From assembly GCF_002245785.1 (NCBI RefSeq), contig NZ_NNCE01000001.1, forward strand, positions 65,365 through 89,364: 24,000 bases of DNA. Direction: 5' to 3'. Shown piece after piece: positions 9,082 to 23,621 of this stretch; position 1 is the stretch's first letter, and each line of letters begins with the position of its first letter. The notes under the pieces were generated by a model. It did no database searches. It was not told the origin of the DNA and saw only the letters and a program-made list of their open reading frames with translations. This DNA comes from Mycoplasma testudineum. GTDB lineage: Bacteria > Bacillota_I > Bacilli_A > Mycoplasmatales > Metamycoplasmataceae. Both the position numbers and the translations under genes were made by a program.

Positions 9082-10915
9082 AAAAGTCTTTTTAAAAAAA
9101 CAACCAAATTTTTTAAATGGATTCAATTTCATTTGAAGATATTTAAAAAATTTTAAAAAAGCTTCGATTTTCGTAGTTGTTGTAACAATAATCATTGCTT
9201 TAATTAATGTTGGTGCAATTGTAGCTTTATTTCTTTTAATGCAACTTGTTGCTCAAGCAAATCAAAATAATAATATTGCTACACAAGTAATTATTTATTC
9301 AGCAGTATTACTTGGAGCATATCTTGTCATATTAGTTTTAAGTATAATAAGAAACTGAATTGTCGTAGTTGTTTCAACTGATGTAGCTCATTTAATGAGA
9401 AGTGATTTATTCATAAAGTTAAAGCTTTTAAAAATTATTTATTATGACCAAACTCCAAGTGGAGATTTACTTTCAAGAGTTTCTAATGACATGGAAAATA
9501 TTATTAGATTTTTATCAAATAATATTTCTCAAATTATTGGTGATGTTACACAAATGCTTGTTATGGCTATAGCTATGTTTGTATTTTCACCGCAAATTTC
9601 TGCTATTGTGATTTTTGGTTTTTTACCTATTTCATTAGTAATAATTATTTTTATTGCAAGAATAAGTAGAAAACGTTACACAGATAGACAAACTTCACTA
9701 GGTGAAATGAATGGATTTTTAGAAGAAACTATTTCAGCAGCCAGAACCATTAAAACTTTAGGTGCTGAAGAAATTTTGCAAAATAAATTTAATGATTTAG
9801 CTACAAAGCAAAAGAAAAATGATGTTAAAGCTTTAATTAATTCGTATTGAGTATTAAGCTGGAATTTATTTTCAGGCGATTTAATGAACTTAGTAGTTAT
9901 TGTTTTTCCAGTTATATTTGCAGTAAACAATATTCATTTTGGCGGAATTAACACTACATTAAATGCAAGCGGAACTACCAACATTGGTGCTGCATATAGT
10001 GTTTTAACTGTATTTACATTATTGTCAAGAAACTTTTCAGGACCAATGTTTCAAATTTTTAATAACATTAACGTCTTACAAAATTCTATAGCCGGTTTAA
10101 AAAGAGTAATGAATATTTTCGAACAAGAAAATGAAGCAAATGAATCAGAAAAATATGACTTGCAAAATATTAGAGGAGACATTCTAATAAAAGATTTGAC
10201 TTTTTCATATGACGGAAATAAAAACGTTTTACACGGAATAAATTTACATGTTAAATATGGAGAAGTAGTTGCAATTGTAGGTCCAACCGGATCAGGTAAA
10301 ACTACTTTTATAAATTTACTTACTAAATTTTACGATATAGAAAATGGATATATATTTATTGATGGTGTAGATATTAGAAAAATCACCAAAGAATCAATGA
10401 GAAAAAATGTTTCATTAGTTTTACAAGATAATTTCTTATTTAATGAAACAGTTTTAGAAAATATTAGAAATGGTAATTTAAAAGCTACCGATGAAGATGT
10501 TTATGCAGCTGCTAAAGCAGCGCATGCGCACGAAATGATACTAAGACTAGAAGATGGATATAAGACTGTTTTAGACGATACTAAAATCACATTATCAACT
10601 GGAGAAAAACAATTAATTTCAATTGCAAGAGCAATTTTGAAAAATTCAACTTTATTAATATTAGATGAAGCTACTTCAAATATAGATAGTGAAACAGAAA
10701 GTTTAATTCAAAAAGCTCTTTTAAAATTACAAGAAAATAAAACTTCTTTTATTATCGCTCATAGACTTTCAACAATACGTAATGCAGATAAAATTGTTGT
10801 CTTAAAAGATGGGAAAATAATTGAAGTTGGAACACATGACCAATTACTTAAATTAGATGGATTCTATGCCAAAATGTCAAAATCTGGCAAAGAAGATGCT
10901 GATTTATTTGTTTAA
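9074..10915 (+). CDS. ABC exporter permease/ATP-binding protein, subunit with consensus Walker B/H-loop, 613 aa
   Basis: ATG 9074 overlaps the upstream stop (ATGCTTAA). The frame was checked through TGA 9134, 9356 and 9848. Walker A GPTGSGKTT, Walker B LLILDEATS, H-loop IAHRLST, but the signature is degenerate (LSTGEKQ). Confidence 0.9.
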
Positions 10916-10919
10916 AATT

Positions 10920-10948
10920 ATATGCAAATTGTACTTTGCATATTTTTT
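10920..10948 (+). terminator. rho-independent terminator of the ABC exporter operon
   Basis: ATATGCAAA (10920-10928) / TTTGCATAT (10935-10943) form a perfect 9-bp stem with a 6-nt loop, followed by TTTTT. Confidence 0.7.
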
Positions 10949-11004
10949 AATTTACTAATTAGATTAAATTTCTTTAAGACAAATTAGGAAAAATTGTTCA
11001 TTCC

Positions 11005-11036
11005 TTGACTATTATTTAATTTCAAATTTATATATA
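11005..11036 (+). promoter_or_regulatory. candidate promoter of the nuclease cassette
   Basis: TTGACT 11005-11010, then a 17-18 nt spacer, then TTATATATA (11028-11036). AAGAGG SD at 11064-11069 precedes ATG 11074. Confidence 0.4.
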
Positions 11037-11073
11037 AAAATTGTTTAATGAGATAATAAAACAAAGAGGTTTT

Positions 11074-11898
11074 ATGAAAAGAAAATACTACAATAATAAA
11101 GATTATTTTTTGGATTTGAATACTAAAAAACTAACTTTATCTGAAGAATTACACAAAAAATTATTAAATAATCAAATGGGATTCAATAAAGGTTTTAAAA
11201 AAATAACTGCTTCAAGAGCTTCGAATGTTTTGGCATTAGGACATTTTGATTCACCCTTTGCTGCTTTTTGTGATATTTCATATATTGGTTTACCAATGCT
11301 TGATACAAAATACGTAGATGCTGGAATAGCAATTGAACCCAAGGTTTTAGATGCTTTAAAAAGTCACTTCAAAAATTATACTTTTGAAACATATGATCAA
11401 AAAGAATATAACTTTGATTACTTTGCTGATAAGGATACCGTTATAGGTGGAACACCAGATGCTTATATTCCTGAAATCAATACAATTATTGAAATTAAAA
11501 CCACGGGTTTTAAAAATTACACTAACTGAACTGATGCTCCTTTAGGATATCAACGACAAGCACAGTTGTATTCATTTTTAAAAGGTAGTAAACAATTTTG
11601 AATTGTTGCAACATTTTTAGAAGAAAGTGATTATAAAAATCCACATGATTTTCCAATTGAAAAAAGAAGAATCAAAACATTTAAGTTTAAATTAGATGAA
11701 GCAATGGTTAAAAACGATATTGCATATATCAAAAAGTGGTATGAAATTTATACACAATCAGGTATCAGCCCAGAATTTGATTTAAATAAAGATGGTGATT
11801 TAATCGAATATTTAAAATGTGAAAATGAAGTTGAATGACAAAAATTAATTGACAAATGGAAAGAGGTCGGAAAAGCTAATGCAATATTCGAAGGATAA
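11074..11898 (+). CDS. YqaJ/lambda-exonuclease-like PD-(D/E)xK nuclease, 274 aa
   Basis: The motif series GIAIE, GGTPDAYI, IIEIKT (D...ExK) and YQRQAQLY matches YqaJ-type viral exonucleases. Three in-frame TGA codons. I chose ATG 11074 (good SD) over the track's TTG 11041. From memory it resembles proteins labelled 'MAGa7180 family putative nuclease' in Mycoplasmopsis genomes (not verified). Confidence 0.75.
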
Positions 11899-12604
11899 AA
11901 TTTTAAAATTTATTCAGTTTAGTAATTATCACCAGTTTAAAAATCCATATTTCACTTGAAATTCATTTGAAAAGTCTGCAATTACGGAAGAAGATTTAGA
12001 CGATTCTGAATCTAACATTGAAGAATTGTTATGGGATTTTGGTGAAGAAAATGATGAGGTTTCATACCGGAGTGTAAGTGATGCAGTAAATGTATTCAAA
12101 TTACATAATGATTCAGCAGTTCAAACATTATGTGAAAACTATCATGATAGTGAAATTGTTTTTATTGACAAAAAAATGGAACCTGAAATTAGGTATAAAA
12201 AAACAATTCAAGCATTTGAAAACGAAAGTGTGAAATTAATAATTAACCCATTCATTTATACGGATAAATATGAATTGAATTTGTTTTTTATTGACAAACA
12301 TCAAAAAGAAATTGGCGCCTTAAAATTTTCTGCCAAAACACTTGCAAAAGATTTTTTAAAAGCATTTTATAATTTATTTTTAATTGACGATCTAGATAAA
12401 ACTTATTTTAGCGATTTAGTTAATTACAATTATTGTATTTTAATTATGGACTATTTAAATTCATTAGAAAAAGGAAAAATTAGTTATAAAAAAACTTACA
12501 CAATCAATATTCAAAAAACATTCGCATTTGATTCTAAAAGAAAAAATGATTTAATCGTAAGCAATTATGTTGATGAACTAATTAAAAAATCAAAATTTAT
12601 ATAA
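11879..12604 (+). CDS. N-terminal (RecB/Cas4-like fold) portion of a DUF2779-type protein, ending at in-frame TAA; 241 aa
   Basis: ATG 11879 lies 20 nt inside the preceding gene. TGA at 11957-11959 read as Trp joins it to ORF-track 12026..12604. The segment LIINPFIYTDKYELNLFFIDKHQKEIGALKFSAKT aligns by eye with the core strands of the nuclease domain preceding DUF2779. It shares a frame with the downstream ORF. Confidence 0.55.
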
Positions 12605-12706
12605 GGTGAGTATGTTTTTAAAAAAAGAGATAATGATATAAAAAATCGCAAAGCAAATTTACCATATTCATATCTAAATTATTCTGTTAAAGAAATATTT
12701 AATAAA

Positions 12707-13816
12707 ATGAAAGATGGCACTTTACATTCTTCAATTAAATATGATAACGAAATTTACAAACTGGTTAGTTTGATTGAAAAACCAATTTATATTTATAATG
12801 AAATTATAAGGCGCAAATCTATAAGCAAATTAGTAATAGATAAATATGATTTAGAAAGCCGGCTATATAATAAATTTAGTGATGTTCCATTTAAAAGTGA
12901 TTTACTCACTTATTTTTATCCAGATGCAAAAAAGTACAATCAAGTAAAGTTTAAATTACATAAATTAGCTTCAGAAGCTGAATGAATTAATTTGAAAAAA
13001 TATATTGAGAAACTAGAAAAAGAATTAAAAGTTGTTGATCAAGAATTAACAAAAACTGAAATTGATAAATATTTAATAAAAGACATTAAATACATATGAT
13101 ACGATTTTGAAACTATATCTTTTCCTTTTTGCGCAATTGATAATTTTGTTCCCTATACAAAAATTCCTTTTCAAGTTTCAATAATTAGAACAATGAACAG
13201 CACACAATTACAAGGTGAAGATGAAGCCGAAAATTTAATAATAGATCCAATTAACATTGATTTAGAACAAATTGCAAAATTTATAGATCGAATCTATTCA
13301 TTTGCAGATTTACAAAATAATTTACCTGCTAGATATATTACATATAATAAGGCATTTGAAAATAGTGTTTTAAGAAGTATTGTTAATATCATGGAAATGA
13401 GTAATTTTTTAAACTATGAAATTTATCAAAAAAAAGTAGAGCAAATTATTGATAATACACTTGATTTAAATGATTTTTTTAAAGAAAGCAAAAGCTTAAT
13501 TTTAATTGGTGAATTGTACTGAAAATCAAGTATCAAATTAGTTGAAAAATTTATAACAAAACATAACTATCCTTTTAAAAATATGATAATTCCATATTCA
13601 TCTTTGGATATTCAAAATGGACTAGTCGCAATGGAAGCTGGGATCAAAAGATATATGGGAAATATAACTGATGAAGTATGAAAAAGTGATTATGAAAAAA
13701 ATTTAAAAACATATTGTGAAAATGATGTTAAAGCAATGTTAATGGTTTTTGAATTAATTAAAGATATATTCAAAAACCAATATCCTGAATTAGGAAATTT
13801 TTCAAATCCATATTAA
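12707..13816 (+). CDS. DUF2779 domain protein (DEDD/RNase-H-like exonuclease-type motifs), C-terminal portion; start uncertain
   Basis: W-YDFETISFPFCAIDNFVPYTKIPFQVS, YNKAFENSVL and YCENDVKAMLMVF form the DUF2779 signature as I recall it. Four TGA=Trp codons join the track pieces 12707, 13193 and the tail to TAA 13814-13816. The first in-frame ATG is 12707, but the frame is open back to the TAA at 12602, and an SD plus ATG at 12612 is one base out of frame (see findings). Confidence 0.7.
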
Positions 13817-13817
13817 T

Positions 13818-13842
13818 AAAAAAACAAAGCCAAACTGGCTTG
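13818..13842 (-). terminator. candidate rho-independent terminator of ftsZ (minus strand)
   Basis: AAGCCA (13827-13832) / TGGCTT (13836-13841) form a stem with a 3-nt loop. On the minus strand it is followed by TTTGTTTTTTT (complement of 13818-13828). Confidence 0.45.
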
Positions 13843-13905: not shown

Positions 13906-15098
13906 GAAAATCAATTTGGCAACTTGCTTTTCTTAGCTTTGTTTAATGTAGTTTCATTGGTTTTGGTTCCAAGGTCAAAATGTGTTGTTTGTAAAATTTT
14001 ACTTGTCAAACTCAATTTTTCAGAAGCTGGTAAAGGATCATCTAAAAGAAATTCTTTTGTTGATTCTTTTTCATATTCAATTTCTAATGTTTTAACCAAC
14101 TCAATAACTTCTGTTTTTTGTTCAACGGAAGTTATTTTTCTACTTGTATCAATTCCTGTGGCAATAACGCTTACGTACATCTCGTCATCATTTGAATCAT
14201 TTATCTTTGTACCAAAAATAATATTTGTGTCTTTACCAGTAGCTTCGGTAATAACTGCAACTGCGGTATTTATCTCCTTTAAGGTAACATTCGAACCACT
14301 AATGTTGATGATTGCATCACTAGCTCCTTTAATTGAATTTTCAATTATAGGACTAGAAATTGCATGAACAGCAGCACTAGCAGCTCTATCTTTACCTGTA
14401 GCTCGACCAATACCAACAATTGCATTACCTTTATTTGCCATTACGGTTTTAACGTCTGCAAAGTCCAAATTTATTCTAGCCGGAACTCCGATAATATCAG
14501 TTAAAGTTTTAACGGTTTGTTTTAAGATGGTATCAGCATAAACAAAACTATCATTTAATGGAACATCACCAAATTGTTCAAGTAATTTATCATTGCTAAT
14601 AGTAATAATTGAATCAACTTTTGATTTTAGTTTATCAATTCCTTCAAGAGCATTATTTTTTCTTTTGTTCCCTTCAAACATGAAAGGAGTAGTCACAATT
14701 GCAACAACTAAGGCACCAGCACTTTTTGCAGCTTCAGCTACAATAGGTGCAGCACCCGTTCCTGTTCCACCACCCATTCCGGCAGTGATAATTACCATAT
14801 CCGAACCTTTAACAACAGCTTTGATTTCTGCAAGACTATTTTGTGCAGCTGCTTCACCTATTTTTGGATCAGCTCCTGCTCCTAGTCCTCTTGCACTATC
14901 TTTATTATCACCTTCGTTACCTAAGTGAATTCTATTTTCAGTTAAAGAATTTTCTAGAGCCTGTTTATCGGTGTTAGCAACATAAAATTCAGCGCCTTGC
15001 AAATTACTCTGAATCATGTTATTAACACTATTAGTCCCTGAACCACCTACACCAATAATCTTAATTGATGCTGTGGGTACAAATTGTTTTTCCTGCAT
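13890..15098 (-). CDS. ftsZ: cell division protein FtsZ, 402 aa
   Basis: IKIIGVGGSGTNSVNNM, GAGADP and GMGGGTGTGAAP are tubulin-signature motifs. The track stop at 13911-13913 is TGA. In code 4 the ORF continues 7 codons (WFSKKDN) to TAA 13890-13892. AAGGAA SD lies upstream. Confidence 0.93.
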
Positions 15099-15107
15099 AT
15101 AGTTCCT

Positions 15108-16307
15108 TTATAAGAAGGTTGTTTTTCTTTTGCTGTAATTTTGGTTGATTAGATATTGTAACGGCATTGTGAATGTGCTTGTATCTAATGAACTTTTTGA
15201 AGTATTACTAATTCGAGATAAAGCTCAAACTGAGTAAAATTTGATTTCATCTAAACCTGGTGTTCGATAATTGGTTTGCAATTCAACTTCTCGATCATCA
15301 AAAATTTTAGATGCAATTTCAAGTGTTTTACCCATAAATGAAATGTTTCCAGAAAAAAATAATTTAATTTTATTTCCGTTTATATCTTTTATACTTTCGC
15401 TTGTTTTTTCTCAAAAACTAGTAATCAACTTAGTGTAGTTATTGATAAAATCTTTTACTGATAAGAGAGGAGAGAAATAATTGATTTCATCTTTTCTTTC
15501 TATTGCTGTTTCTAAAAAATGAGAAAATAAAAAGTGATATTTTTTTGCAGTATCATAATCAAAATCAAATTCATTCATTGTATGTTTTATAAATGAATTT
15601 TCACCAAAATCAAGATACTTTATAATTGTAACATTTCCGTCTTCGCGTTTACTAATATATGTTTTGTTTCGGCCAAAATGTATGTTGATAAAGTCTTCTT
15701 TTAAATCCTTGTTTACAAAAGCATCATTAACTAATTTTGCATATGGATAAATTTTATTAATTTTAAGACCAAGCAATTTAAATTTTTCTTTTAAATTATT
15801 TACTATTGATTTTTCAGCACATGTTATTTTTGCGTGAATTTCAAATTTTTGGTTATCAAAATTAATTTCATCGATAGACTCATATATGTTAATGGTTTCA
15901 TCATAAACATTTAATTCATTAAAATGCAAAGGCACTACATCGATAATGTAGTGATTTTGGTTTACTTTTTCATATTGGCTTGCTATATTTTTGATTAAAG
16001 AAATGATTTTCTTTTTAGAGTTGTAATTCTCGTTTAAAGTTTTAGTTACGCTAAAATCATTTAAAGTTGTTTTTAAAAAATCTGTTTTATAAACAATGTC
16101 TATTTTTTCTAAGCGAGTTCCTATTTTTTCATAGTAATTAACTAAATAAGTTCTAGCTGCTTGAAGACTTGATTCAACATCATCTTTATCAACATAATAT
16201 TCTTTTTCCAAAACAATAGAATCAACATTATCAAAATTGACATAGGTTACAAATCTGTAAGTTGCTATGTCTATTTCAACTAGTGTCTGGTATTTTGGAA
16301 GTCCCAT
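15108..16307 (-). CDS. ftsA: divergent FtsA-like (actin-fold) cell division protein, 399 aa
   Basis: It sits between rsmH and ftsZ. Weak actin-fold phosphate/adenosine motif equivalents: LVEIDIATYRF, INIHFGRNKTYIS, LFFSGNISFMGKTLEIASKIF. The track ORF 15411..16307 was extended through TGA 15411 and 15225 to TAA 15108-15110, checked codon by codon. Confidence 0.6.
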
Positions 16308-16316
16308 ATTTATCCT

Positions 16317-17216
16317 TTAATTTTTTAGTTTGGTTAAAACTCTAAGTTTTGCACTTCGTGAGCGTTTATTGTTTGTAATTTCATCGTTTGTTGGATTATA
16401 AGTTTTTGCTTTGAACTTAGCTTCTTCAATAATTGGTAAGCGAAAGTCATGTTCACGTTGAATCAAATTTTTAAAGAAATCTTTAATTATTTTGTCTTCT
16501 GCAGAATGGAAACTAATAATCATTAATTTACCGCCAACTGGCAGATAATCAATTGCTTTAGTTAAAAATTCTTGCAGAGCAGAAAATTCATCGTTGACTT
16601 CAATTCTTAGTGCTTGAAAAACAGTTTTTGCATGATTTTTTTGACGAACTAGTTTAGCTGGCAATGCTTTTCTAATTAAATCTACAAGTTCTAAAGTTGA
16701 ATTTAATGGTCTGTTTTCTACAATAGCTTTCGCAATTACTTTTGGTAATTTTACATCAGCGTTTTTAGTAAAAATACGGACCAATTCATCTTGAGTTGCA
16801 TTATTAATTATTGAGTGTGCAGTCAAATTTTGTTCTTGATTCATGCGCATGTCCAATGGACCATCTTTGTTATAACTAAAACCTCTATCGGCAAAATCTA
16901 CTTGGACGCTGGAAATTCCTAAATCAGCTAAAAAATAATCAACTTTATCAATTTTTAGTGCTTGTAAGTGAGTGTCAAAATTTCTAAAGTTACTCTTAAA
17001 TACTCGGGCACTTGGATATTGGGCAAGTTTCAATTTGCTATTTTTAATTGCAAAATCATCTTGGTCAAATCCGATTAATTTTAGTTTTTTATTTTTATTT
17101 AATATAGCTGCAGAATGTCCGGCATAACCAATAGTTGCATCAACAAAAATTTTATTAGTTAAACTATCAATTTGGTCAAGGACTTGTTCTAATAGCACGG
17201 GTTTATGAAAATCCAC
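16317..17216 (-). CDS. rsmH: 16S rRNA (cytosine1402-N4)-methyltransferase RsmH (MraW), 299 aa
   Basis: HKPVLLEQVL, FVDATIGYAGHS, DLGISSVQ(VD) and ISFHSAEDKI are typical RsmH motifs. GTG start at 17216, 2 nt after the mraZ stop. Confidence 0.92.
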   Translation of the reverse strand: MDFHKPVLLEQVLDQIDSLTNKIFVDATIGYAGHSAAILNKNKKLKLIGFDQDDFAIKNSKLKLAQYPSARVFKSNFRNFDTHLQALKIDKVDYFLADLGISSVQVDFADRGFSYNKDGPLDMRMNQEQNLTAHSIINNATQDELVRIFTKNADVKLPKVIAKAIVENRPLNSTLELVDLIRKALPAKLVRQKNHAKTVFQALRIEVNDEFSALQEFLTKAIDYLPVGGKLMIISFHSAEDKIIKDFFKNLIQREHDFRLPIIEEAKFKAKTYNPTNDEITNNKRSRSAKLRVLTKLKN

Positions 17217-17218
17217 TA

Positions 17219-17674
17219 TTATTTTTCCTTTGATTTTTCTACTTCGTTTTCAAAAACCGCTTTGGCAGCTTCTGAATAAGCAGAATCATCCATCATTGAA
17301 TCAAATTCTTCTTGTGATTCTGAACTTCAGATTTCAACTTTTGAACCAGCTCCAATGAAAACTACATCTTTTTTGATGGCAGATTTTTTAATAAAGTTTT
17401 CAGGAATTACAAATCTTCCTTTAGCATCAACTTCAACTTCAGAACTTCTTTGGTAAAAAGCTCTTTTAAATTTTGTTGCTGCAGCATCAAGATAATTGCT
17501 TTGGTCTAACTTTTGAGTATAAATTCTAAAATCAGATTCGGTTCACATCTCGATAACATTATCAAAACCTAGAACAATGAAAAAACGGTCACCAAAATTA
17601 TCTTTAAATTTAGCCGGTACACTAACTCTGTAACGGCTATCAAGTGATCTTGGATATGTCCCATAATTTCCCAT
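17219..17674 (-). CDS. mraZ: transcriptional regulator MraZ, 151 aa
   Basis: Two SpoVT/AbrB-like repeats (SLDSRYRVSVPAKF and EVDAKGRFVIPENF). Two TGA=Trp codons. ATG 17674 chosen; an in-frame ATG 12 nt upstream (17686) is an alternative start. TAA at 17219-17221. Confidence 0.9.
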
Positions 17675-17806
17675 TCTATCCCCCATCTATTTTATTTTAT
17701 ATTTTTTTGCCCATAATCAATGAAAAAATGCCTAAAATTTTCAATTATTTTGTTTTTGAGTTAAATAAAAAAATTTCCAAAAGGGGAAATTGGCTAAAGG
17801 ATTAAA

Positions 17807-19916: not shown

Positions 19917-19993
19917 GGGAGCGTAGCTCAGTTGGTTAGAGCACACGACTGATAATCGTGAGGTCGATGGTTCGAGTCCATTCGTTCCCACCA
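19917..19993 (+). tRNA. tRNA-Ile (anticodon GAU), CCA encoded
   Basis: Cloverleaf folded by hand: acceptor GGGAGCG/CGTTCCC, anticodon stem CACGA/TCGTG, loop CTGATAA, T-loop TTCGAGT. 77 nt. Confidence 0.9.
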
Positions 19994-20606: not shown

Positions 20607-20683
20607 GGAGAAGTAGCTCAGCTTGGCAGAGCACTTGGTTTGGGACCAAGCGGTCGAAGGTTCAAATCCTTTCTTCTTCACCA
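20607..20683 (+). tRNA. tRNA-Pro (anticodon UGG), CCA encoded
   Basis: Acceptor GGAGAAG/CTTCTTC (one G-U), anticodon stem CTTGG/CCAAG, loop TTTGGGA, T-loop TTCAAAT. 77 nt. Confidence 0.9.
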
Positions 20684-20689
20684 TTTTAT

Positions 20690-20766
20690 GGGGGGGTAGC
20701 TCACCTGGCTAGAGCGCCTGCCTTGCACGCAGGAGGTAGAGGGTTCGACTCCCTTCCTCTCCACCA
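20690..20766 (+). tRNA. tRNA-Ala (anticodon UGC), CCA encoded
   Basis: Acceptor GGGGGGG/CCTCTCC including the G3:U70 identity pair, loop CTTGCAC. 77 nt. Confidence 0.9.
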
Positions 20767-20770
20767 TTAT

Positions 20771-20847
20771 GGCACTGTAGCTCAGCTGGTTAGAGCATCC
20801 GGTTCATACCCGGAAGGTCATGAGTTCGACTCTCATCGGTGCTACCA
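20771..20847 (+). tRNA. tRNA-Met elongator (anticodon CAU), CCA encoded
   Basis: Loop TTCATAC, anticodon stem TCCGG/CCGGA. Closely resembles Bacillus-type elongator tRNA-Met. 77 nt. Confidence 0.8.
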
Positions 20848-20870
20848 TTTGGAAAAATACTAGCAGTATT

Positions 20871-20946
20871 GGATCTATAACTCAATGGTTAGAGTAACCG
20901 GCTCATAACCGGTCTGTTGCAGGTTCGAGTCCTGCTAGATCCACCA
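20871..20946 (+). tRNA. tRNA-Ile2 (gene anticodon CAU, presumably lysidine-modified), CCA encoded
   Basis: Loop CTCATAA, stem ACCGG/CCGGT, fully paired acceptor GGATCTA/TAGATCC. Position and loop context match the Ile(CAU) member of the conserved Firmicute/Mollicute cluster. 76 nt. Confidence 0.7.
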
Positions 20947-20947
20947 A

Positions 20948-21040
20948 GGGCAATTACCCAAGTCTGGCTGAAGGGAGTAGTCTTGAAAACTACCAGGGGA
21001 TGAAAGTCCCGCGGGGGTTCGAATCCCTCATTGCCCGCCA
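20948..21040 (+). tRNA. tRNA-Ser (anticodon UGA), long variable arm, CCA encoded
   Basis: Acceptor GGGCAAT/ATTGCCC, loop CTTGAAA, long extra arm (GGGGATGAAAGTCCC). 93 nt. Confidence 0.9.
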
Positions 21041-21076
21041 TTTGATATTCATAAATATCACCAAAAAAAACAATAT

Positions 21077-21152
21077 CGCGGAGTAGAGCAGTTGGCAGCT
21101 CGTCGGGCTCATAATCCGAAGGTCATAGGTTCGAATCCTATCTCCGCAACCA
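21077..21152 (+). tRNA. initiator tRNA-fMet (anticodon CAU), CCA encoded
   Basis: C1 opposite A72 (unpaired first pair) in acceptor CGCGGAG/CTCCGCA. GGG at the bottom of the anticodon stem, loop CTCATAA. 76 nt. Confidence 0.85.
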
Positions 21153-21153
21153 T

Positions 21154-21230
21154 GGTCCAGTGGTAAAGTGGTTTAATACGCCTCCCTGTCACGGAGGAGA
21201 TCGCGGGTTCGATCCCCGTCTGGACCGCCA
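21154..21230 (+). tRNA. tRNA-Asp (anticodon GUC), CCA encoded
   Basis: Acceptor GGTCCAG/CTGGACC, loop CTGTCAC, discriminator G. Starts 1 nt after the previous CCA. 77 nt. Confidence 0.9.
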
Positions 21231-21233
21231 TTT

Positions 21234-21309
21234 GGCTCTGTAGCTCAGTAGGTAGAGCAACGGATTGAAGCTCCGTGTGTCGCTGGTTCGATTCCTGCCG
21301 GAGCCACCA
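21234..21309 (+). tRNA. tRNA-Phe (anticodon GAA), CCA encoded
   Basis: Acceptor GGCTCTG/CGGAGCC, anticodon stem ACGGA/TCCGT, loop TTGAAGC. 76 nt. Confidence 0.9.
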
Positions 21310-21693: not shown

Positions 21694-22219
21694 TAATTCA
21701 GAACCAATCCAAGTTTATGAGCACAAAATTAATATGGTAGCTCACTATAAAGTAAATACAAAAGTAACTCCAACTGAAAGACATGATGTTGAAATTAAAA
21801 GATATTTAAGAGATGATACTTTTAGTGTTAAAACAACTTTCTATTCTACTCGTAAAAGAAATATTGTTTTTGCTTTACAAATCAATAATAAAAATATTGC
21901 ACAAAGCAGCAATTTCTATCTTGAACCAGGTGATAATAAAACACATATATTCGATGCAATTCACATCAAACACAAATTAACCGAGGTTGACAATTTAAAA
22001 GTTGTAGTTATTGACTATTCTAATCAAAGATTATCTGATTTCTTATTTATTACAGATTTAAATATTTCTTTAAGTGATTATAAAAGACAATATTTGATAG
22101 ATAACAAAACGCTTTTGGTAAAGATTCCGCATATTATAAATATATCAAATTGAGCATCACAAATACATAAAGGAGTTCTACCTACAATTGAGACACAATA
22201 CTTAAATTTAGAGCTCTAA
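21686..22219 (+). CDS. hypothetical protein, 177 aa
   Basis: GGAG SD. The ATG overlaps the previous stop (ATGCTTAA). TGA 22151 read as Trp extends the track ORF to TAA 22217-22219. No family recognised; predicted to be beta-rich from composition. Confidence 0.55.
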
Positions 22220-23546: not shown

Positions 23547-23621
23547 AGGAGTATAGTTCAATGGTAGAACAACGGGCTTCAACCCCGTGTGTTATGGGTT
23601 CGAGTCCTGTTACTCCTGCCA
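23547..23621 (+). tRNA. tRNA-Trp (anticodon UCA, reads UGA and UGG), CCA encoded
   Basis: Acceptor AGGAGTA/TACTCCT is perfect. Anticodon stem ACGGG/CCCGT, loop CTTCAAC, discriminator G. 75 nt. TATAAT at 23525-23530 lies upstream. Confidence 0.9.

Follow-up and report, generated by a model that had tools for sequence, protein, structure and literature searches.

A probable single-base nonsense difference, private to one draft assembly, in the UU173/DUF2779-family nuclease gene of Mycoplasma testudineum

Programmed -1 frameshifting in Escherichia coli dnaX takes place at the heptamer A_AAA_AAG, which has an SD-like stimulator upstream and a hairpin downstream. In some Mycoplasma surface-protein genes poly(A) tracts are phase-variation switches. 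Within the RNase H-like superfamily the DUF2779 proteins form a clade of 3’-5’ exonucleases, often fused to a PD-(D/E)XK domain (PMC3985635). For one member of the family, MMSYN1_0389 of JCVI-syn3.0, a fusion of an N-terminal Cas4-like nuclease with a C-terminal DEDDh/y exonuclease has been proposed (PMC13621843).

We analysed a window of 24,000 nucleotides from the draft assembly NNCE01 of M. testudineum BH29T, in which a gene of this family is annotated as two separate products. A first-pass annotation had drawn attention to the junction between them, where a stop codon, an SD-like octamer, an out-of-frame ATG and an A-rich slippery heptamer follow each other closely, and had offered four readings: programmed -1 frameshifting or transcriptional slippage, homopolymer phase variation, recent gene decay, and homopolymer sequencing error. 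The comparisons presented here make it very probable that the split results from a private single C-to-A nonsense difference in an otherwise intact UU173/DUF2779 gene, and that nothing is programmed at the junction.

The window has a G+C content of 28% and contains genes with in-frame TGA codons. These TGAs and a tRNA with anticodon UCA show its genetic code to be table 4 (Mollicutes). This tRNA was labelled “tRNA-SeC” by ARAGORN; in a code-4 Mollicute it is a UGA-reading tRNA-Trp. Since the window uses table 4, a table-11 ORF listing fragments its genes artificially, breaking every gene at TGA, and a code-4 analysis was used in its place. Under code 4 two adjacent open frames, 11849-12604 and 12605-13816, lie in the same reading frame with a single TAA between them, which bears out the earlier observation that the upstream ORF and the DUF2779 ORF share a frame. 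The former contains an ATG at 11879, from which the gene extends for 645 codons if codon 242 is taken as Ser, interrupted in this assembly by one in-frame TAA; the annotated start of the second product is the earliest in-frame ATG past that TAA. On the 650-position NCBIfam profile NF045869 (UU173 family) the N-half occupies positions 2-243 (74.9 bits) and the C-half positions 265-650 (271.5 bits; cut-off 225), and the C-half also matches Pfam DUF2779 (PF11074; 80 bits). Because they share a frame and fall colinearly on one profile, the halves belong to one gene, and what divides them is a single in-frame stop and not a frameshift. The coordinates of these and other features are collected in Table 1.

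Table 1. Coordinates of the UU173/DUF2779 gene, its junction and neighbouring features in the window.
Feature	Position	Strand	Remarks
MAGa7180-family putative nuclease gene	11074..11898	+	YqaJ/lambda-exonuclease-like; NF045870, 357 bits; its last 20 nt lie within the UU173 gene
UU173/DUF2779-family gene	11879..13816	+	NF045869 match to both halves; Pfam DUF2779; intact 645-aa conspecific product
N-half, 241 aa, OYD27084.1	11879..12604	+	annotated in this assembly as “hypothetical protein”
In-frame TAA, codon 242	12602..12604	+	TCA (Ser) in other M. testudineum contigs and in M. agassizii PS6
Variant base	12603..12603	+	A in the window, C in L081; sole mismatch across 21,938 aligned bases
SD-like AAGGTGAG	12603..12610	+	gene frame (T)AA GGT GAG = stop/Ser-Gly-Glu; CAGGTGAG in the intact allele
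Out-of-frame 9-codon ORF, MFLKKEIMI*	12612..12641	+	inside the coding sequence; ATG spans TAT GTT (Tyr245-Val246)
T5A7 tract	12615..12626	+	G-TT TTT AAA AAA A-GA = Val246 Phe247 Lys248 Lys249 Arg250; A7 in both assemblies
C-half, 369 aa, OYD27085.1	12707..13816	+	annotated in this assembly as “DUF2779 domain-containing protein”
Terminator-like hairpin	13827..13841		between the convergent UU173 and ftsZ genes
Division-cluster remnant	13911..17686	-	ftsZ, 399-aa gene, rsmH/MraW, mraZ
ftsZ	13911..15098	-	
tRNA-Ile	19917..19993	+	
Tight cluster of eight tRNAs	20607..21309	+	Pro, Ala, Met, Met, Ser, Met, Asp, Phe; three CAU anticodons
tRNA, anticodon UCA	23547..23621	+	ARAGORN label “tRNA-SeC”

Seven proteins that differ from the interrupted gene by a one-substitution reversion of the TAA (K, E, Q, Y, L, S, and W via TGA) were looked up by exact sequence. 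The Ser revertant proved to be an existing record (TDO21162.1 / WP_133509956.1 / UniRef100_A0A4R6IG84, “DUF2779 [Mycoplasma testudineum]”, 645 aa; NCBI and Logan sources), which consists exactly of the N-half, Ser and the C-half, all 644 other residues being identical to those of the window. The same look-up returned no record with K, E, Q, Y, L or W at codon 242, Ser alone being found. This intact product is encoded by three other M. testudineum contigs, and the two split products are recorded from one contig only. A single uninterrupted ORF of the size usual in the family (~550-860 aa) is thus found in the conspecific contigs and is lacking in the window, where codon 242 is TAA. At the DNA level one conspecific locus, L081 (the Logan assembly of run SRR12407803), was compared as the sole representative of the three contigs with the intact product. 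It is identical to window positions 1879-23816 at 21,937 of 21,938 bases, and its gene call at 10001-11938 corresponds to the full-length gene of the window. The premature stop and the serine codon of the intact allele are one base apart, and in M. agassizii PS6 the aligned codon is likewise TCA, in the context ATT TCA ATT.

The wider family gives the same picture. The homologue in M. agassizii, the closest other species, is a protein of 673 amino acids which aligns to 99% of the read-through fusion with ~30% identity; at the junction the alignment has no gap, and Ser stands opposite the stop. When the full-length M. agassizii protein was used as query in an exhaustive HMMER search, 162 family representatives were found; of the 150 listed, most have a length of 550-860 aa, many of them matching end to end. 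A scan in which each species was represented by one genome recovered 80 Mollicutes loci, which were read under code 4. One is cut by a contig end and was left out; each of the remaining 79 encodes the homologue in a single ORF without interruption, 551-862 aa long. The scan used the pattern LKTYCENDV, and M. testudineum is absent from its 126 confirmed matches, though it carries the pattern. In multiple alignments the stop sits in a length-variable, unconserved stretch, and the window sequence keeps every invariant family residue on both sides of it. The invariant columns include the DEDDy set D409, E411, D529, Y612 and D616. Since all invariant residues are retained, the gene shows no sign of further decay.

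Seven representatives among the 150 listed (P0021, P0047, P0080, P0097, P0119, P0129 and P0139; 295-382 aa) match the C-terminal DEDDy part only. They may stand alone as exonucleases, or they may be incomplete: fragments at contig ends, or proteins from Mollicutes metagenomes cut short at TGA by table 11.

The intact protein was modelled with AlphaFold2 on a 32-sequence alignment; the model has a mean pLDDT of 74.7 and a pTM of 0.77. It contains two confident domains, residues ~68-215 in the N-half and ~370-640 (DEDDy) in the C-half. Residues 217-335 (window ~12527-12883), which include codon 242, have a pLDDT below 50 and are poorly conserved and length-variable in the family. An acidic N-terminal stretch, residues 31-67, is also modelled with low confidence. 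The best Foldseek matches are DEDD exonucleases, ExoI and RNase T, with weak E-values (~5e-3) and high probability, and back the DEDD fold of the C-domain only; a profile search of PDB sequences gave no match. The fold matches are in line with the assignments published for DUF2779 and MMSYN1_0389 (PMC3985635, PMC13621843). The gene product is putatively an N-terminal Cas4-like PD-(D/E)XK nuclease joined to a C-terminal DEDDy 3’-5’ exonuclease, the Cas4-like assignment being taken from the literature.

As to the surroundings of the gene, a MAGa7180-family nuclease lies immediately 5’ of the UU173 homologue in 29 of the 80 Mollicutes loci, and MAGa7180/UU173 is a conserved pairing with three predicted nuclease domains. 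The 399-aa gene of the downstream division cluster has no Pfam match and is possibly FtsA-like. GC-rich ORFs on both strands at tRNA-Ile and at the tRNA cluster are spurious, being artefacts of the tRNAs.

The motifs of the junction were all found where the first-pass annotation had placed them (Table 1), the heptamer A_AAA_AAA lying at 12620-12626 in the frame of ATG 12612 (TTA AAA AAA G). In the frame of the gene, the region reads ATA T[C/A]A GGT GAG TAT GTT TTT AAA AAA AGA, that is, Ile-Ser/stop-Gly-Glu-Tyr-Val-Phe-Lys-Lys-Arg. The A7 run encodes Lys-Lys and the first base of the Arg codon, and the SD-like octamer starts on the variant A, the same base that makes the stop. The octamer, the out-of-frame ATG and T5A7 are ordinary codons of an AT-rich gene, situated in a poorly conserved inter-domain linker. 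Such motifs are abundant here: the + strand of the window has 30 runs of A7 or longer, six of them within the UU173/DUF2779 gene, and each strand has 378 X_XXY_YYZ heptamers (~16 per kb). An ATG occurs within 12 nt downstream of ~22% of window positions, and an A7 or longer run within 30 nt of 9% of positions in the gene. The composite of an SD tetramer, an ATG and an in-frame heptamer recurs at two further sites in the window. These high base rates explain the coincidence at the junction, which is no more than chance and post-hoc selection would produce.

The reading in which -1 frameshifting or transcriptional slippage on A_AAA_AAA, from ATG 12612, regulates synthesis of the exonuclease half is very improbable. 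It takes its appeal from the position of the heptamer in the frame of that ATG, with AAGGTGAG before the ATG and 9 nt upstream of the heptamer, and from the fact that a -1 slip would yield MFLKK-RDNDIK, continuous with the DUF2779 ORF; the resemblance of the SD-like motif and A_AAA_AAA to dnaX keeps it formally conceivable as a coincidence that could be exploited in the TAA background. However, the three other contigs have an uninterrupted ORF with the same A7 tract and need no shift, the supposed zero frame is a mere nine codons within coding sequence, and the SD-like motif begins with the mutated base. Nor does the sequence 3’ of the heptamer (12627-12720) contain a stimulatory RNA structure: its MFE is -9.5 kcal/mol with z = -0.82, 40 of 200 shuffles fold equally well, and the predicted stem begins 35 nt downstream, in agreement with the earlier remark that no convincing hairpin was visible. 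The site is also unconserved: the 105 nt aligned from M. agassizii PS6 include neither an ATG nor an A run of six or more, and none of the 79 homologous loci is split. The first-pass annotation had proposed the comparison of orthologous junctions as a check. Orthologues are single ORFs in which the SD/ATG/A-tract arrangement is unconserved, and A7 is fixed across assemblies, an outcome that goes essentially against its claim. Less probable still, to the point of being negligible, is an A7/A8 phase-variation switch that turns the exonuclease half on and off. An A8 tract would link ATG 12612 to the frame of the C-half; but A7 is present in the independent assembly L081 as in the window, and the three intact contigs need A7 to encode the exact 645-aa protein. 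The halves share a frame, so the break does not come from a change of tract length; the substitution that causes it lies 17 nt before the A run. In addition, long A runs are common in this DNA, and the gene product is a cytoplasmic nuclease and no surface antigen. A homopolymer sequencing error is not supported either: the break is a substitution and the run is A7 in L081, so that any error would be a substitution and not a miscount of the run. We conclude that the recoding or phase-variation element at the junction is not real.

A stable split into two genes, with the Cas4-like and DEDDy halves made separately and ribosomes reaching the second either by reading through the stop or by re-initiating at ATG 12707, is highly unlikely, even though several features seem to invite it. 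The stop lies in the non-conserved linker, so both folded domains would stay whole; there is no other lesion in the gene; and some C-terminal-only members of ~300-380 aa occur among the listed representatives. Against this, the split is private to one assembly and is one base in 22 kb away from an intact conspecific copy, which makes it too recent to have evolved as an arrangement; ATG 12707 is not preceded by an SD-like motif; and all 79 other assessable loci are fused. A promoter scan was at chance level (29 found vs. 26.5 expected) and is uninformative about an internal promoter. Stop-codon readthrough was considered and set aside, being without evidence and needless given the intact allele. 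There is similarly only a slight chance that the TAA is real in the BH29T stock and both domains are still made, the second because translation restarts at ATG 12707, or restarts at ATG 12612 and then slips by -1 on A_AAA_AAA.

We therefore return to a private nonsense difference as by far the most probable explanation: a C-to-A change at 12603, peculiar to the NNCE01 (BH29T) draft, converts codon 242 of a 645-codon gene from TCA (Ser) to TAA. Recent gene decay, one of the four original readings, is right in kind in this form, as a single nonsense substitution. The difference could have arisen in two ways, which we hold to be about equally likely. It may be a very recent C>A nonsense mutation in the sequenced stock, in which case the protein would be truncated after the Cas4-like domain; G:C>T:A changes of this kind fit the AT-biased mutation pressure of Mollicutes. 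Or it may exist in the consensus only, through a wrong base call, a fault of assembly or a variant present in the minority. The NNCE01 assembly of BH29T was produced with SPAdes from Illumina NextSeq data at 64x coverage (PMC5896096). Reads from the group behind that assembly entered PRJNA655797 in August 2020, and the group also used its BH29T reads again (PMC7857612). SRR12407803, from which L081 was assembled, could be the same read set as that behind NNCE01, PRJNA655797 being a candidate by its date alone; if so, this would favour the error or mixture alternative.

The practical consequence is that the split annotation, a 241-aa hypothetical protein followed by a 369-aa DUF2779 protein, calls for correction: it represents one gene, for a Cas4-like/DEDDy nuclease of 645 aa, with a single-base nonsense difference. 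More generally, in very AT-rich code-4 genomes the density of slippery heptamers, A runs and stray ATGs can place a seemingly complete frameshift cassette beside any accidental stop. Should the TAA be real in the stock, the allele would be a knock-out or would separate the domains, and this in a family with quasi-essential status in JCVI-syn3.0; the product would be 241 aa long and hold the N-domain, and the DEDDy domain would be made only via re-initiation, most simply at ATG 12707. If both domains were nevertheless made, the strain would provide a natural experiment in which two nuclease domains work as separate polypeptides.

In comparison with known systems, the junction resembles the E. 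coli dnaX -1 site in that an SD-like element lies ~9-10 nt upstream of an A-rich X_XXY_YYZ heptamer. Unlike dnaX, it has no downstream hairpin, its zero frame is nine codons long, it is unconserved, and the intact gene needs no shift. With the poly(A) phase-variable mycoplasma genes, such as vaa of M. hominis and p78 of M. fermentans, it shares an A run in the coding region; here, in contrast, the tract does not vary in length between assemblies, and the break is an upstream substitution that leaves one shared frame. With the UU173/DUF2779 family itself (e.g. MMSYN1_0389, and Mbov_0804 of M. bovis) the gene agrees in its two-domain architecture, its colinear match to the profile and its DEDDy residues, the interruption of the ORF being confined to this M. 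testudineum assembly. This is a known, uncharacterised family, and the intact form of the gene is already in the databases as TDO21162.1/WP_133509956.1, an allele which has the same T5A7 tract and is alike in all other compared DNA, and which differs at codon 242, where it has TCA and not TAA.
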